Positions 25,793 through 64,000 of a stretch of 64,000 nucleotides of DNA are shown here, piece by piece (within the stretch, counting starts at the first letter, position 1; every line of letters starts with the position of its first letter). The position numbers and the translations under genes are program-made. The stretch is from the sequence record MF327003, one strand, 5' to 3'. Origin of the DNA: Shigella phage Sf14. The notes below the pieces were generated by a model, which did no database searches, was not told the DNA's origin, and worked only from the letters and a program-made list of their open reading frames with translations.

Positions 25793-28492
25793 TTAGTGGA
25801 CTTCAAGCCACGATTTACCAACTTTCCCTGCACCTGTGACCAATGTCTCTTTTCTTAGCCCAAGGTTCTTAGATGCTTGACCATAATACCAGTCAGTTAC
25901 TGCTTTCACATCTGCTGTCATGCTCTCTGGACATTCCCAGCTTGTTTCATCGTGGTAAGCACAGAGTAAGCGAGCACCAATAGCTGGTTTACGACCATTC
26001 AACTTCATCAAACCTTCGTCAATCATACGACGACATGCAAGGTTGATTGCTTCATTCTGAACTTGTGCTTCTGAACCCATCAGCAAATAGTTCAAGAGTT
26101 TGTGTGGAGACTTACACCACAGCCAAGCCCCAGCAACCTTCACAAAACCACCTTTAGAGATTGCAGCAGTCTTACCAAACACCTCTTCAAGTGCTTTCTT
26201 AGTTGCTTTGAAATCAGCTTCCAAGTTGTCTAACAGTTTCTTAATCTTCGGTAAACGCACAAAGTAAGTCTGCTTAGTCAATGCACCTTCCTGAGTAGTT
26301 GCTGCTTTAATTGTTTTAGCAAACTTCTCATCACCTGCACCGAACAACAGGGCATAGATACCATTCTTAGCTTTCTTACGTCCCTTGCTAATCTCATGAA
26401 GAAGATTCTCATCCTGAGTAGCACGACAAGTCAAGATATCTTGCTCATCATTAAGGCTGAAGTAGATACTGTTCAGGGTGTGAGCATCAGTCCCTGAGTA
26501 AACTACGTACAAATCGTTTTCAGAGTCATAACGCAGATACTTGTCAATCTCTGGATTCAGATACTGGTCAAAGTGTTTGCAGTAGTATCTTCCATCCTCT
26601 TGACGAACAAACTCAATCTCTTCTTTACCCTCTGTTACCGCTTTGGTGAAGTCTTTATCACCCATGAAGTTACAGAGTAGTACAAGCTGTGCAGAGTTCA
26701 TATCAACAGATACTACGTTGGTTCCCTCTTCACAAATCCACACTGCCCTCATTGGTTCACCGTACACGGCAGCACCGGAAGGTACGTTCACAATACCATA
26801 CTGAGTCATACGTCCAGTAGAAGTGCCAAACACCATTGCACCTGCACTCAAACGACCATCTGGACGAATCTGGTTCAGCCAACCTTTCTCATCATCCTTT
26901 GAGTTCTCAATAGTCCTGCGTCGGTGCATCAAAGTATAGTACTTTGCAATCTTCTGTCCAAGCTCACCTTCGATTGTATCATAAGAAGATTCTGTAAGCT
27001 TTGGTGAAGTCCTAATCAAGCAAGGCTCAAGCACATCTGTGTACTTCTTAACAGACCAGTTATGCTCAATGTAATAGACGCCTTCATGCTCAATATAGCT
27101 CAACCCACAACGTTCAACCATCTCATCCCACTTAGGATGTTTGCGAATCATCTTTTTATTGTCTTTGAATCTGCAAACCTTGATAGGACGACCATCAGAA
27201 TCTTTTTTATAGTTCCAATCATCAGGAATCCAACCAACAGACTTTAAGTAATCCTTCACCACAGCTACCTGAGTCATTCGTGAAACTTCAAACTCAATTG
27301 GTGTAAATGGTGCATCAATCAAACCAGTGTAGCGACTAGACTCTAACTCGAAGTGGTTAACAACGTGAACATTGTAGTACTTCACAGTTTTCACAGTCTT
27401 AACTGGCTTCCAATCTTTACACTTCTTGCCAATCTTCTCATTCAGTTCATTACAAACTGCACGAGCATCTTTCATTGCTACAAAACCTTCAGGGTACTCT
27501 TCTTTTGTTACCGTGTTAGTTGGAGTGTAGCAGTTGCGTTTCTCAACATTAAAAATCTTTGTAGTTGGCTTTCCATACGGCTTGATAGGGTACTGCTTCA
27601 ACTCACCTTCACGCATCTGTTCACGATACTTTGTCTTAGGGTACTTGGTAATCCTTTTTAAACCGTCAACGTGACCAAATGTATCTACATACTCGTTCCA
27701 AGACTTGGCAAATTCTTCACCTGTAACTTTACCTTTTGTCTTAATAGTTGGTGGAAGGTGTGGTTCAACCTCAGCAGCCAACTCATTAGTTAACTTGTCA
27801 AGTTCTTTAACGTGGAACTGCATAAGTTCTACATCAGCTTTCCAACCGTTGATAGCTTGCTGACTCATCCAGAAGGATGTTTCTTTAGCTCGCATGTAGG
27901 TTTCATAAGTGTCAACACCACACTTCTTAAGCTTGAGGTACTCATTATCAAGAGCACGTTTAGTTTTGGCGTTAATCTTAATATCTTCTACAACACGAGT
28001 AAGAATCTCTGCATTCCAGACACCCCACTCTTCAATCTCTGGTTTACGGACACCTACACGAGCACCCCATGCAGCCAAACCATGAGCACCTTTGTAACCT
28101 TTTGGCGTAGGTCTATCCATCCACTGTACGCGAGATTGGATAAGTGAATCCTGAAAGAAGTCACTCCAAGGCTTACACTTAGGGTTCTCAAAGTTCCACA
28201 GGTCAGGTGCAATGTGATTAAACACCCACCAGTCATAACCCAAACCATTGTGGATGCAAAGGCGTTTAGCTTTCAGTGCAAACTCAACACCTTCACGCAG
28301 ACCACCTTTGATGTATTTTGTATACTTGTGACCAAGAATAGGCTCATCAGTGAAAACCCACACAGCAGGTTCATCACTGTCATCTTTATAGTCTGCGAAA
28401 GCCATTACGTGTGCTTTTGTAAACTCAAGGAGCAACCCATCAGTTTCTGTATCACCAACCAAATGTAATTTTTCGAAATCTACATTGTCCAT
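25793..28492 (-). CDS. DNA polymerase, family A, with N-terminal 3'-5' exonuclease domain
   Basis: Exo I motif DTETDGL near N-terminus; pol motifs RKKAKNGIYALLFGAG (motif B-like) and YHDE (motif C-like); 899 aa. Confidence 0.8.
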   Translation of the reverse strand: MDNVDFEKLHLVGDTETDGLLLEFTKAHVMAFADYKDDSDEPAVWVFTDEPILGHKYTKYIKGGLREGVEFALKAKRLCIHNGLGYDWWVFNHIAPDLWNFENPKCKPWSDFFQDSLIQSRVQWMDRPTPKGYKGAHGLAAWGARVGVRKPEIEEWGVWNAEILTRVVEDIKINAKTKRALDNEYLKLKKCGVDTYETYMRAKETSFWMSQQAINGWKADVELMQFHVKELDKLTNELAAEVEPHLPPTIKTKGKVTGEEFAKSWNEYVDTFGHVDGLKRITKYPKTKYREQMREGELKQYPIKPYGKPTTKIFNVEKRNCYTPTNTVTKEEYPEGFVAMKDARAVCNELNEKIGKKCKDWKPVKTVKTVKYYNVHVVNHFELESSRYTGLIDAPFTPIEFEVSRMTQVAVVKDYLKSVGWIPDDWNYKKDSDGRPIKVCRFKDNKKMIRKHPKWDEMVERCGLSYIEHEGVYYIEHNWSVKKYTDVLEPCLIRTSPKLTESSYDTIEGELGQKIAKYYTLMHRRRTIENSKDDEKGWLNQIRPDGRLSAGAMVFGTSTGRMTQYGIVNVPSGAAVYGEPMRAVWICEEGTNVVSVDMNSAQLVLLCNFMGDKDFTKAVTEGKEEIEFVRQEDGRYYCKHFDQYLNPEIDKYLRYDSENDLYVVYSGTDAHTLNSIYFSLNDEQDILTCRATQDENLLHEISKGRKKAKNGIYALLFGAGDEKFAKTIKAATTQEGALTKQTYFVRLPKIKKLLDNLEADFKATKKALEEVFGKTAAISKGGFVKVAGAWLWCKSPHKLLNYLLMGSEAQVQNEAINLACRRMIDEGLMKLNGRKPAIGARLLCAYHDETSWECPESMTADVKAVTDWYYGQASKNLGLRKETLVTGAGKVGKSWLEVH

Positions 28493-47319: not shown

Positions 47320-48201
47320 ATGAAAACTACTATTCGAGTTCTACTTAATTCAAATTCCAAAGGTTCTCATCAAGAGGCCTTCAACATTATCCAGTTCCCT
47401 TCTGGTGAGATTGGTGGTAACTTCTCAGAAGACTTAGTAGACTTTGCTGAACATGCTGCTGGTAAGATTGAAAACGTAATCTTCACAGTACAAGGTTATG
47501 ACAAAGACACACTCTTTGCATTGGCTATGGCTAAAGAGGCTATTGACCGTTTGATTCCTCAGAAAGCAACCATGAAAACTGTTCTTTTTGGATTCTTACC
47601 AAATGCTCGCTATGACCGTCACATGTTTAAAGGCGATTCAGCAGCATTAAAAGTCTTTGCAAATTTGGTAAATGCTATGGAGTTTGATGCAGTATGTGCT
47701 TTAGATACTCACAGCAACGTAGCAGAGAACTTGTTTAAGTGCTTCTATAACCTACCTCAGAAAGAGGCAGCAGTACACTTTGCAAGTGACCCACGTATTG
47801 ATTTCTTAGTGGCTCCAGATGCAGGTGCAGCTAAGAAGACTGAAGAGGCTGCTAAAGAGGTTGACAAGCCGTATATCACAATGGCTAAGGTTCGTAACCT
47901 GAAAACTGGTGAAATCACTGGTATGCGAATCCTTGATGATGTAGACTTAACTGGTAAAACTGTCATGATTCTTGATGATATCTGTGATGGTGGACGTACA
48001 TTTGTAGAGGCTGCAAAGTATCTCCGTGAAGCTGGTGCAAGCCGTGTAGAACTCTATGTAACTCATGGGATTTTCTCGAAAGGTGTTGAAAACCTTCTTG
48101 ACAATGGTATCGACCATATCTACACTACAGACTCACTAGGAAGTGCTAGTTCCCGTGGTCTGAGTCAGTTCTCGCAAGTAACTGTAGCAAACATTGAGTA
48201 A
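47320..48201 (+). CDS. ribose-phosphate pyrophosphokinase-like (PRPP synthetase family) protein
   Basis: PRPP-binding motif MILDDICDGGRT; ATG 47320 with GAGAG RBS. Confidence 0.7.
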   Translation: MKTTIRVLLNSNSKGSHQEAFNIIQFPSGEIGGNFSEDLVDFAEHAAGKIENVIFTVQGYDKDTLFALAMAKEAIDRLIPQKATMKTVLFGFLPNARYDRHMFKGDSAALKVFANLVNAMEFDAVCALDTHSNVAENLFKCFYNLPQKEAAVHFASDPRIDFLVAPDAGAAKKTEEAAKEVDKPYITMAKVRNLKTGEITGMRILDDVDLTGKTVMILDDICDGGRTFVEAAKYLREAGASRVELYVTHGIFSKGVENLLDNGIDHIYTTDSLGSASSRGLSQFSQVTVANIE

Positions 48202-56058: not shown

Positions 56059-56406
56059 ATGACGTTTAAAGAATTTTGTCAAGCAGCTTTTGTAATCATT
56101 TTCTTAACAGGTGTTGGTGCTTGGGGAGGCTACACTTACAAGACCAGCCAAGTTAATGAAAAGGAGCTAACTAACCAGAAACTGGTAAGTGTTGCTAAAG
56201 ATGCTTATCAAGAAGGTTTATCAAATCTTAGCTCCAATTACAAAAATGATTTGAAAGATGTGCTTGCTAAAAACAAACACACCAAAGAGGTATTGAACTA
56301 TGAAAAAACTAAGACAGTCTTTATTAATGATTGTGCTACTGAGCCTTATGTCAGGGTGTTCAACGAGCAAAGTGAGCAGTACCTTCAAAAACTCCCAAGT
56401 AAGTGA
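56059..56406 (+). CDS. i-spanin candidate (Rz-like)
   Basis: N-terminal TM helix (AAFVIIFLTGVGAWGGY) then coiled-coil periplasmic domain; contains embedded lipoprotein ORF. Confidence 0.5.
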   Translation: MTFKEFCQAAFVIIFLTGVGAWGGYTYKTSQVNEKELTNQKLVSVAKDAYQEGLSNLSSNYKNDLKDVLAKNKHTKEVLNYEKTKTVFINDCATEPYVRVFNEQSEQYLQKLPSK

Positions 56407-56566
56407 GAGTGACAAGTATACTCAAGAAGAAGCACGTTATGAGGTTAAAGGCACTAAAGGTGAAGACCTTGCAAGTGCTCTTGAGTTTTATCGTGATGGT
56501 TACTATGAATGTACTATTAAGGCAAACAATTTAATTGATATGATTTTGTTAGGGAATAAGCAGTAA
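56300..56566 (+). CDS. o-spanin candidate (Rz1-like lipoprotein), overlapped with i-spanin gene
   Basis: Starts inside 56059..56406 in another frame; lipoprotein signal MKKLRQSLLMIVLLSLMSGC; AAAGAGG RBS. Confidence 0.5.
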   Translation: MKKLRQSLLMIVLLSLMSGCSTSKVSSTFKNSQVSESDKYTQEEARYEVKGTKGEDLASALEFYRDGYYECTIKANNLIDMILLGNKQ

Positions 56567-56835
56567 TGACAGAGAAGAATGAAACATTTTTTGTGGAAGG
56601 TTATCTTCTGTTACCAAGACCAAGTAACACTTACATGAGATTTGACATTATGCCAACGGTTATGGATGATGTAACTTGTCACATCTTTATGCAGGGTGTT
56701 TCTGCACAACTTAAACATGTTGGAAGAGATTGCAAAATACGTGTTGACAACCATCCTGAAATCAACGAGAATCACTACACATGGTTCGGGGAAGATTCTA
56801 AAGAAATCTATGCAGTCCTTAAAACGAGGAAATAA
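56566..56835 (+). CDS. hypothetical protein
   Basis: 89 aa ORF. Confidence 0.3.
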   Translation: MTEKNETFFVEGYLLLPRPSNTYMRFDIMPTVMDDVTCHIFMQGVSAQLKHVGRDCKIRVDNHPEINENHYTWFGEDSKEIYAVLKTRK

Positions 56836-56838
56836 AGT

Positions 56839-57291
56839 ATGAAAGTTCAACCATATTATACTGAGTTTAAAGATTCTAACGGTGAAATCTGCACATTACA
56901 ATGAAGCTCATCATTTGAGCCTCGTATTTGGCTTGGTGCAAAAGAAGTCTCAGTAAAGTATCTGAGCAATGGTTGGAAAGAACTGGATATACCCGCATTG
57001 ACAGGTAAGGATTTTGTAGGTAATCAACGTATGAACCTGAACCAAGCTCAGGTAAAAGAGCTACTACCTTACCTTCAATACTTCGCAGAACATGGTGAGT
57101 TACCTAACTGTGAAATTTCACCAGAAACACATACTGATAAAAAGCAAGAATTGCTTAAACTGATTGAAGAGTATGGTGATTCTCGTTACAATGAAGCTGG
57201 AGAAAGTTGTGTAGGTTCTGTAGAGGGTTTAACACTCTGGGAAGAAGCCTCAATATCCTTACTCCAACAAATCAAAGAAGTTATCCAGTGA
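56839..57291 (+). other. ORF interrupted by single in-frame TGA (56902-56904): pseudogene, readthrough candidate, or sequence error
   Basis: ATG 56839 with GAGGA RBS; frame open from 56905 to 57291; downstream segment's first start is a TTG without RBS. Confidence 0.35.
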
Positions 57292-57300
57292 GGTTTAGTG

Positions 57301-57627
57301 ATGCAACTAGATGGTAAGAATTATGTAGCCGTCTTTTCAGACGGTGAGAAAGAAATTGGTACAGCACAAGTCTGTCACAGTGGTAAAGAGTTTCTCTATG
57401 GGGTTGTTGCATTCATTGGTACTCGTGGTGATATGAAATCTTTTAAAGATTGTGTTGACAAGCTTGAAGAATCCATAGAGAATCATTGGTGTCTGATATG
57501 GCTTAATGCAGAGAATGTTAAAGAACGCTATGCAAAAGTTGGTATCCATATTGAAAGCATCGAACATGTTGACCTGTTTGAACTAACTGAAAAGGTGATG
57601 TATGAAAGCAATTCTGGTAAGAAGTAA
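57301..57627 (+). CDS. hypothetical protein
   Basis: ATG 57301 with GAGG RBS. Confidence 0.3.
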   Translation: MQLDGKNYVAVFSDGEKEIGTAQVCHSGKEFLYGVVAFIGTRGDMKSFKDCVDKLEESIENHWCLIWLNAENVKERYAKVGIHIESIEHVDLFELTEKVMYESNSGKK

Positions 57628-57862
57628 AGTTACACGTCAAGTGTTAGCAGGGGCTATATTTGTTGGACGGGATGAGGTGATGCCATTTGGTTCACGAATC
57701 TATAAAGGTTCTGTACTATCACATAGCCACTTTAAGGCTGGTGATTTTTGTCACTATATTAACAGGGGCTATCTAAGAGAGGAACTCGGATATTGGAAGA
57801 CCCGCATTAAGGAAAGATACGGTGACAGAGTATTCTTACAAGAGGTAATCTCAAATGGCTGA
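57602..57862 (+). CDS. hypothetical protein
   Basis: 86 aa ORF. Confidence 0.3.
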   Translation: MKAILVRSKVTRQVLAGAIFVGRDEVMPFGSRIYKGSVLSHSHFKAGDFCHYINRGYLREELGYWKTRIKERYGDRVFLQEVISNG

Positions 57863-60116: not shown

Positions 60117-60457
60117 TCACATACGTTGCAATTTTTATCTCTATTGTGGCGCTCTATAAAGCCTTACAAGCGCACAGTATAGCTAATAAGGCACTTACAA
60201 GGGATTTAAAAATAAACCTTGTACGGGGCTTTTTAGAGCGTTTAAGCTTAGAACAATTGAAACGCTTAGAGATGAGCTTTCGATTCAAAGCAGAAACATA
60301 CCGGATTGATAACATCCTAGACGGTGATTTTAAATTAATCAGTGATTATGACATACTTCTTGAGTCAATTCAAGATATAAACCTGAAAGATTATTATATC
60401 GTGATAGCGCAAGAAATTAATAAAAAAGAGCTTGCAATGCAGAATCAAAACAAGTAA
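60110..60457 (+). CDS. early small membrane protein
   Basis: N-terminal TM helix (ITYVAIFISIVALY); 115 aa. Confidence 0.35.
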   Translation: MLITYVAIFISIVALYKALQAHSIANKALTRDLKINLVRGFLERLSLEQLKRLEMSFRFKAETYRIDNILDGDFKLISDYDILLESIQDINLKDYYIVIAQEINKKELAMQNQNK

Positions 60458-63162: not shown

Positions 63163-63242
63163 TTTACATGGGGTTTAAAAGCTAGTATCTTAAGCCCCAG
63201 ATAAAGAGCTTTACCAACAATCCTAAACTGGAGAATCTGAAA
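63163..63242 (+). promoter_or_regulatory. type 2 promoter/leader cassette
   Basis: TTTACATGGGGTTTAAAAGCTAGTATCTTAAGCCCCAGATAAAGAGCTTTACCAACAATCCTAAACTGGAGAATCTGAAAATG. Confidence 0.45.
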
Positions 63243-63584
63243 ATGGCCTATGTAACAATTATCACCGATAAAGAAAATTCGTCATGGTCTACCCAAGTTA
63301 ACGACAAAATGAAACCTATGCAGTGTCTCAAGTACTTTGAGCAATGGAACAGGGGAGAAGATGTAAGCCCCTTTCAAGTGATGCAGATTGTACATGTTGA
63401 CAATGAAGGGAATAAAACTACCCTTAACACTGAATACTATGCTACACGTTTCGAAACTCGCAAATCAGCTATGCAGGAGTTAAGAGAAAAGGGATATAGT
63501 CACATTGCCGCGCTCATTTGGTCTGATTTGCTTAAAAAACAGTCATTAACCTATGTTAAGCCAGAAAAAATCTTTATAAGCTAA
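63243..63584 (+). CDS. early protein, copy 1 of tandemly duplicated gene
   Basis: 113 aa; identical to product of 63659..64000. Confidence 0.45.
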   Translation: MAYVTIITDKENSSWSTQVNDKMKPMQCLKYFEQWNRGEDVSPFQVMQIVHVDNEGNKTTLNTEYYATRFETRKSAMQELREKGYSHIAALIWSDLLKKQSLTYVKPEKIFIS

Positions 63585-63658
63585 TCAACAACTTATAAAA
63601 ATCTTTTGAAAAACAGATAAAGAGCTTTACCAACAATCCTAAACTGGAGAATCTGAAA

Positions 63659-64000
63659 ATGGCCTATGTAACAATTATCACCGATAAAGAAAATTCGTCA
63701 TGGTCTACCCAAGTTAACGACAAAATGAAACCTATGCAGTGTCTCAAGTACTTTGAGCAATGGAACAGGGGAGAAGATGTAAGCCCCTTTCAAGTGATGC
63801 AGATTGTACATGTTGACAATGAAGGGAATAAAACTACCCTTAACACTGAATACTATGCTACACGTTTCGAAACTCGCAAATCAGCTATGCAGGAGTTAAG
63901 AGAAAAGGGATATAGTCACATTGCCGCGCTCATTTGGTCTGATTTGCTTAAAAAACAGTCATTAACCTATGTTAAGCCAGAAAAAATCTTTATAAGCTAA
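63659..64000 (+). CDS. early protein, copy 2 of tandemly duplicated gene
   Basis: Translation identical to 63243..63584; stop codon is the last 3 bases of the window. Confidence 0.45.
   Translation: MAYVTIITDKENSSWSTQVNDKMKPMQCLKYFEQWNRGEDVSPFQVMQIVHVDNEGNKTTLNTEYYATRFETRKSAMQELREKGYSHIAALIWSDLLKKQSLTYVKPEKIFIS

Follow-up and report, generated by a model that had tools for sequence, protein, structure and literature searches.

A probable nonsense mutation in a conserved accessory gene of Shigella phage Sf14

The interrupted reading frame

In the genome of Shigella phage Sf14, a reading frame that opens behind a good ribosome binding site meets a TGA after 21 codons and then stays open, in the same frame, for a further 128 codons. 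Is this one gene broken by a mutation, one gene whose stop codon is decoded as sense, two genes in series, or an error in the sequence record? We addressed this question in a window of 64,000 nucleotides of record MF327003, the whole stretch of DNA that was analysed, and all positions below count from its first letter. Sf14 and the relative used most often for comparison, Sf16, both belong to the genus Mooglevirus of the subfamily Ounavirinae, the Felix O1-like myoviruses.

Direct reading of the sequence placed the start codon at ATG 56839, followed by 21 sense codons and a TGA at 56902–56904, which is codon 22. Past this TGA the same frame holds 128 more sense codons and ends at a second TGA at 57289–57291. 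A program-made list of open reading frames breaks the frame into a 21-aa ORF and a 97-aa ORF, the latter started at TTG 56998. The positions that a sequence-only reading of the locus had given for the ATG, the ribosome binding site, the TGA, the open frame and the TTG all agreed with ours. The features of the locus are as follows, with N and C denoting the two modules of the gene described below.

56826..56830, + strand: Shine–Dalgarno-like GAGGA, 8 nt 5' of ATG 56839, overlapping the end of the 89-aa gene at 56566–56835
56839..56901, + strand: codons 1–21, MKVQPYYTEFKDSNGEICTLQ, equal to residues 1–21 of Sf16 gp120
56902..56904, + strand: premature TGA, codon 22; where Sf14 has T at 56902, Sf16, KPS64 and Michonne have A
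56905..57288, + strand: codons 23–150, frame open; the N module continues to about 57123, and the C module spans about 57139–57288
56998..57291, + strand: 97-aa ORF with TTG start, codon 54 onward; residue for residue the hypothetical protein YP_009618658.1 / AUV62854.1 (FDI99_gp044)
57031..57033, + strand: codon 65, the first ATG in frame past the premature stop; a weak AGG lies 10 nt 5' of it, and the second annotated CDS of ESh20 begins there
57256, + strand: G>T (GCC>TCC), Ala140 to Ser, 3' of the premature stop; GCC in Sf16, KPS64 and ESh20, GCT in Michonne
57289..57291, + strand: TGA that normally ends the 150-codon gene, found at this position in all full-length orthologues

The GAGGA is annotated as a ribosome binding site in the Michonne orthologue, and translation of the Sf14 copy from ATG 56839 would give only a 21-aa peptide. 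Between the TGA at 56902–56904 and TTG 56998 there are 31 stop-free codons (56905–56997), a run that had been judged modestly unlikely by chance. From base composition only, we obtained P of about 0.10 for such a run, weak evidence taken alone. That caution was therefore justified, and comparison with relatives was needed to settle the question.

Orthologues carry a sense codon at position 22

An uninterrupted gene of 453 nt and 150 codons is annotated in Sf16 (gp120), KPS64 (gp131), Michonne (gp136), Mordin, Maleficent and vB_CbrM_HP1 (HP1_116). In all six it occupies the same genomic slot, between an 89-aa and a 108-aa gene just 3' of the spanins; these flanking genes, downstream of the spanins, belong to PHROG 4391 and PHROG 4453, respectively. 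The Sf14 copy resembles Sf16 gp120 (ATE86260.1), KPS64 gp131, Michonne gp136, the Mordin protein and HP1_116 in slot, length and frame. Unlike those 150-aa proteins, it has TGA in place of AGA at codon 22 and Ser in place of Ala at codon 140, and a full-length product is impossible.

Alignment of the DNA showed that the codon facing the TGA is AGA (Arg) in Sf16, KPS64 and Michonne, and the HP1 protein likewise has Arg; in Felix O1, HY02 and ESh20 the codon at this position is GAA (Glu). The view of the locus as a single frame broken by one TGA was thus borne out by the sense codon, AGA or GAA, that the orthologues carry there. Across the wider family (10 representatives aligned, out of 11 clusters retrieved among 5.8 billion proteins), codon 22 corresponds to E, R, Q or K in 10 out of 10. 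Codon 22 lies inside the motif C-T-[LIV]-Q-x-S-S, of which C18, Q21, S23 and S24 do not vary within the family, and the stretch from the TGA to the TTG encodes the family's most conserved motifs (SSS-EP-IWLGAKEVSV).

The whole of 56839–57291 is identical to the gene for Sf16 gp120 at 451 of 453 nucleotides and 148 of 150 codons, and its conceptual translation through the stop matches gp120 at 148 of 150 residues. The ratio dN/dS was 0.04 over codons 1–53 (Sf16 versus Michonne) and again 0.04 over codons 7–96 (Sf16 versus Felix O1); by these sequence comparisons, purifying selection on codons 1–53 is strong. Sf16 gp120 matches PHROG 25740 over positions 1–150 (E = 1.5e-102). The Sf14 locus shares with this group its full-length similarity and its conserved position, and it departs from the group in its frame, which the TGA interrupts. 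On account of this TGA at codon 22, the locus would be a disrupted copy, that is, a pseudogene, of the PHROG 25740 family. As judged from the alignments, 56839–57291 is one conserved gene whose premature stop appears to stem from a single A>T transversion at 56902.

Uniqueness and polarity of the change

Sf14 and Sf16 are 99.8% identical over 1.5 kb around the gene and about 99.25% identical over 56 kb. Within the block 56059–57812 they differ at only three sites. At site 56704 it is Sf16 that has the derived state, every other relative matching Sf14. At the two others, 56902 (the nonsense change) and 57256 (Ala140Ser), the derived state is in Sf14, and both lie in the 150-codon gene. Given the first of these changes, the chance that a second would fall in the same gene within an otherwise identical 2.8-kb block is about 0.16, and two derived changes in one gene are too few to demonstrate relaxed selection.

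The TGA-bearing allele was found nowhere else. An exact search for a 38-mer containing it gave no match in IMG/VR viral, JGI metagenome or GTDB genome contigs, and an exact-protein look-up found no contigs encoding the 97-aa product. By exact-sequence look-up this product is on record for Sf14 alone, with NCBI as the sole source. A degenerate pattern for the locus matched only one IMG/VR contig, of 90,000 bp, a match that covers the pattern and not the identity of codon 22. When 87 CDS from Sf16 were mapped onto the 64-kb window, the TGA at codon 22 was the sole internal stop, and no frameshift attributable to the Sf14 window was seen across these 87 genes.

A modular and accessory gene

The intact orthologue is matched by three PHROGs: 25740 over the full 150 aa, 3849 over residues 7–96 (the N module) and 26590 over residues 101–149 (the C module). 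In a census by tblastn, 104 of 50,697 phage records had a relative of the gene. The fused N+C form occurred in nine records of the census, in which Michonne and Mordin are each counted twice (GenBank and RefSeq). Among the matches listed, Felixounavirus records carry the N module alone (95–104 aa), and Moogle, Mijalis, KMM4, ESh19, SUSP2 and others carry the C module alone (51–53 aa) with its own ATG. The census also showed distant homologues of the N module in Pseudomonas phages.

Three further relatives carry a broken gene or none. Sf17 and Sf13 lack exactly this gene, with 9 nt from the end of the upstream gene to the start of the downstream gene; in ESh20, whose record is labelled UNVERIFIED, a 1-nt insertion (an extra A) frameshifts and splits it. 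This distribution shows the 150-codon gene to be accessory and dispensable. Relatives that lost it are evidently viable, and a nonsense allele can therefore persist.

Felix O1 ORF9 (NP_944793.2, 102 aa) and its Felixounavirus homologues, PHROG 3849, are homologous to residues 7–96 of the N module at about 75% amino acid identity, and ORF9 follows the spanin genes as the Sf14 gene does. These homologues differ in having no C module, in keeping a T-x-RGF motif near the N terminus and in having Glu at the position of the stop. Unlike them, the clade of Sf16, Sf14 and Michonne has lost T-x-RGF by a 5-codon deletion. The stand-alone C-module genes of PHROG 26590 (phiSUSP1 YP_009199340.1, ESh19 URY12277.1 and KMM4 WBF80937.1) are about 90% identical to residues 101–150. 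They are independent genes with an ATG at the module boundary, whereas the C module of Sf14 sits inside the interrupted fused frame and has no start of its own.

The five codons absent from the clade of Sf14, Sf16, KPS64 and Michonne map to 56854–56859 (codons 6–7). The T-x-RGF motif that they hold is nearly invariant in the other members of the family, and the N module of the clade is still strongly constrained (dN/dS 0.04).

The genomic slot flanked by the 89-aa and 108-aa genes (56836–57300 in Sf14) is itself a hot spot for changes in gene content. It is empty in Sf13 and Sf17 (836–846 of the Sf17 locus sequence). In Sf14, Sf16 and Michonne it is filled by the fused N+C gene, and in ESh19 (838–1395 of its locus sequence) by the C module together with two unrelated small ORFs, one of them Cys-rich (CPCC...C).

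Searches for a function of the protein gave no hits in Pfam, NCBIfam or PADLOC, and the matching PHROGs are all of 'unknown function'. A sequence profile search of the PDB returned one chance-level match only (E = 0.27). AlphaFold2 gave a mediocre model (mean pLDDT 64.5, pTM 0.43), with five short strands followed by helices; Foldseek searches with this model found nothing in the PDB at E < 1 and, in BFVD, only uncharacterised phage proteins (from Pseudomonas phage Phabio and Caulobacter phage CcrColossus). A scan for promoters and terminators around the gene gave the same counts as in shuffled sequences.

A nonsense mutation or a base-call error

Our preferred explanation, to which we assign a probability of about 0.77, is a real, lineage-specific nonsense mutation in a dispensable accessory gene. 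In the proposed sequence of events, the Sf14 copy of a 150-codon accessory gene of Felix O1-like phages would have undergone an A-to-T transversion at 56902 that turned AGA (Arg) into TGA. Ribosomes starting at ATG 56839 would then terminate after 21 residues, and the gene would be inactivated. The phage would tolerate this loss because the gene is dispensable, close relatives being without it or having one of its two modules. The remaining frame would still be open because the mutation is recent, and one further derived missense change, at 57256, would have accumulated since. The Sf14 copy probably gives no functional protein, and low-level readthrough of the UGA or re-initiation at ATG 57031 could give traces of protein.

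The main rival to a real mutation is a base-call error. The true Sf14 genome would then have AGA and an intact gene for 150 aa, and the T at 56902 would be an artefact of sequencing or consensus building. We consider this unlikely, though it deserves more weight than any of the alternatives discussed below. The TGA allele is unique to a single record, and the rest of the gene looks functional, with its ribosome binding site, its open frame and 148 of 150 residues as in Sf16. Sister records also have apparent one-base problems, namely an extra G at 57813 in Sf16 and the extra A in this same gene in ESh20. Against an error, the window otherwise looks clean: the 87 mapped genes contain neither a second internal stop nor a frameshift specific to the window. 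Homopolymer indels are typical of assembly errors, but the change at 56902 is a substitution in non-repetitive sequence (ACAATGAAGC). The same gene moreover carries the second derived substitution, at 57256. We infer from these observations that the change is probably a real mutation rather than a base-call error.

Recurrent loss of the gene

A real knockout might in addition have been adaptive: in some hosts among Shigella or Citrobacter the N module is perhaps a liability, as it would be if a defence system, of the abortive-infection type or another, sensed it. Among Moogleviruses the gene has been lost repeatedly and by different routes, through deletion of the whole gene (Sf13 and Sf17), deletion of the N module (ESh19, KMM4 and Moogle), a frameshift (ESh20) and the nonsense change (Sf14). 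No clean correlation of these losses with host was visible, and we regard adaptive loss as improbable. If true, it would explain why loss recurs, and Sf14 would represent a natural escape mutant sampled very soon after the change.

Two cistrons

A further alternative, which we consider very improbable, is that the locus holds two functional cistrons and that the downstream ORF is translated from TTG 56998 or ATG 57031 into a truncated protein consisting approximately of the C module. The C module does occur as a free-standing gene of 51–53 aa in ESh19, phiSUSP1, KMM4, Moogle and others, PHROG 26590 is a model of this module on its own, and the weak AGG precedes ATG 57031. The free-standing genes, however, begin with an ATG at the module boundary (MDKQ...), where Sf14 reads ACT GAT AAA AAG and has no start codon. 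Nor does TTG 56998 make a convincing start: it has no convincing Shine–Dalgarno sequence, and it falls in the middle of the conserved N module, which it would halve, after the fifth short strand of the AlphaFold2 model. In the intact orthologues the same TTG and ATG codons are plain internal Leu and Met codons, and there was no sign of selection for a two-cistron layout.

Compared with a natural split pair, in which the modules part at their junction, the Sf14 interruption lies within the N module, at codon 22, and there is no ATG at the module junction. The sequence-only reading had named orthologues with two separate genes at this position as what would speak against a single broken gene. 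Separate genes do exist in the family, but their boundary lies at about codon 96–101 and not at codon 22 or the TTG, so they do not rescue a two-gene reading of the Sf14 locus. The 97-aa protein, the only part of the frame that the public annotation calls, is a remnant that ORF calling has made of the broken gene, and not a gene in its own right. For any low-level re-initiation ATG 57031 would be the most plausible site; its product would be an 86-aa fragment, with precedent only in the equally broken annotation of ESh20.

Recoding of the stop codon

Programmed recoding would have the TGA decoded as sense, by readthrough with tRNA-Trp, by a phage suppressor tRNA or as selenocysteine, to give the full-length product of 150 aa. 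We find this hardly credible, and give it the least weight of the alternatives. Its attraction is that the frame past the TGA is open throughout and conserved and that ATG 56839 has a good ribosome binding site; a 5-bp hairpin at 56906–56920 also begins 2 nt 3' of the premature stop. UGA is known to be leaky at a basal level in enterobacteria, through which traces of the full-length protein are possible. Yet no orthologue has a stop there; the residue is Arg, Glu, Gln or Lys, and Cys does not occur. Sf16, with AGA at this codon, has the same hairpin, and folding of 56890–56975 gave a result indistinguishable from shuffles (z = -1.5). A search of 56500–57600 against Rfam, including its SECIS families, found no match at E<=1.

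The decoding apparatus offered no support either. There are no tRNA genes within the 64-kb window because the tRNA cluster sits outside it, and the 26 tRNAs annotated in Sf16 include neither a UCA anticodon nor a tRNA-Trp. According to a published analysis, Sf14 has 26 tRNAs that between them decode 25 sense codons, for 19 amino acids (PMC12482277). The 87 mapped genes end in TAA (57), TGA (23) or TAG (7); TGA is thus an ordinary terminator in this phage, used by 23 of the 87, and there is no second in-frame TGA.

The likeness to bacterial selenoprotein genes and to genes with programmed UGA readthrough is superficial: what they share is an in-frame UGA with an open, conserved frame behind it. 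Unlike those genes, the Sf14 gene has no SECIS and no orthologue with Cys, its stop is not conserved, and the phage has no suppressor tRNA. Of the three explanations that the sequence-only reading had put side by side, the nonsense-mutated pseudogene and the sequencing error both fit our results. The third, readthrough or recoding, found no support, since the stop is unconserved, no phage suppressor tRNA or SECIS is present, TGA is a normal terminator and this is the sole internal stop.

Frameshifting was dismissed as a rescue: the conserved sequence stays in the frame of ATG 56839, so that only readthrough, and not a shift, could restore the protein.

Consequences for annotation

Under the preferred explanation, a nonsense mutation in a dispensable gene, YP_009618658.1 (97 aa, TTG start) should become a pseudogene or disrupted-gene feature over 56839–57291. 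Analyses of codon usage, pangenomes and PHROG-type clustering that use Sf14 as a species exemplar inherit the truncated artefact. Sf14 would not need the gene to form plaques on S. flexneri, a useful point in the choice of Sf14 genes to delete or replace. The locus would be an ordinary pseudogene or a one-base error, with no bearing on stop-codon recoding.

Other features of the window

The two spanin genes upstream of the 89-aa gene overlap each other out of frame.

56059–56406: i-spanin, overlapping the o-spanin out of frame
56300 or 56372 to 56566: o-spanin, overlapping the i-spanin out of frame

The annotated length of the o-spanin gene is 270 nt in Michonne, 195 nt in Sf16 and 198 nt in KPS64; from these differing starts in relatives it follows that the start is called inconsistently across records.

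At position 57813, in the gene at 57602–57862, Sf16 has GGG and Sf14 GG, and Sf16 gp122 is shifted and shortened. The 86-aa ORF of Sf14 (261 nt) has the same length as in Sf17 and ESh20, and a frameshift or error is therefore likely to lie in the Sf16 record rather than in the window.

Differences between Sf14 and Sf16 are very patchy along the window. The ribose-phosphate pyrophosphokinase gene accounts for 76 of them and the DNA polymerase gene for 44, whereas most genes have none; the regions listed for this comparison are 47320–48201, 25793–28492 and others. Overall the codon changes comprise 162 synonymous and 40 non-synonymous ones. The patchiness fits mosaic recombination between close Moogleviruses.

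Near the end of the window, a 416-bp unit is duplicated in tandem.

63198–63613: first copy of the 416-bp unit
63614–64000: second copy, which runs past the end of the window

The copies have 0 mismatches over 387 nt. The unit holds a complete 113-aa ORF (MAYVTIITDKENSS...), an orthologue of Sf16 gp7; in Sf16 the unit is present once. The second copy may reflect a genuine, recent duplication of the gene, or else an artefact of assembly close to a genome end or terminal repeat.

Between 59704 and 63252 we also observed families of intergenic repeats of 70–117 nt, with copies at about 59729, 60786, 61615, 62869 and 63151, and also at 60453, 61309, 63179 and 63595. They contain a G/C-rich hairpin (GGGGTTTA...AAGCCCC or ACGGGGCAAGATAGAAGCCCC) beside TTTACA-like promoter hexamers and a conserved ribosome binding site and start, AACTGGAGAATCTGAAAATG. 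These repeats look like reiterated terminator–promoter–ribosome binding site cassettes placed before small early genes.
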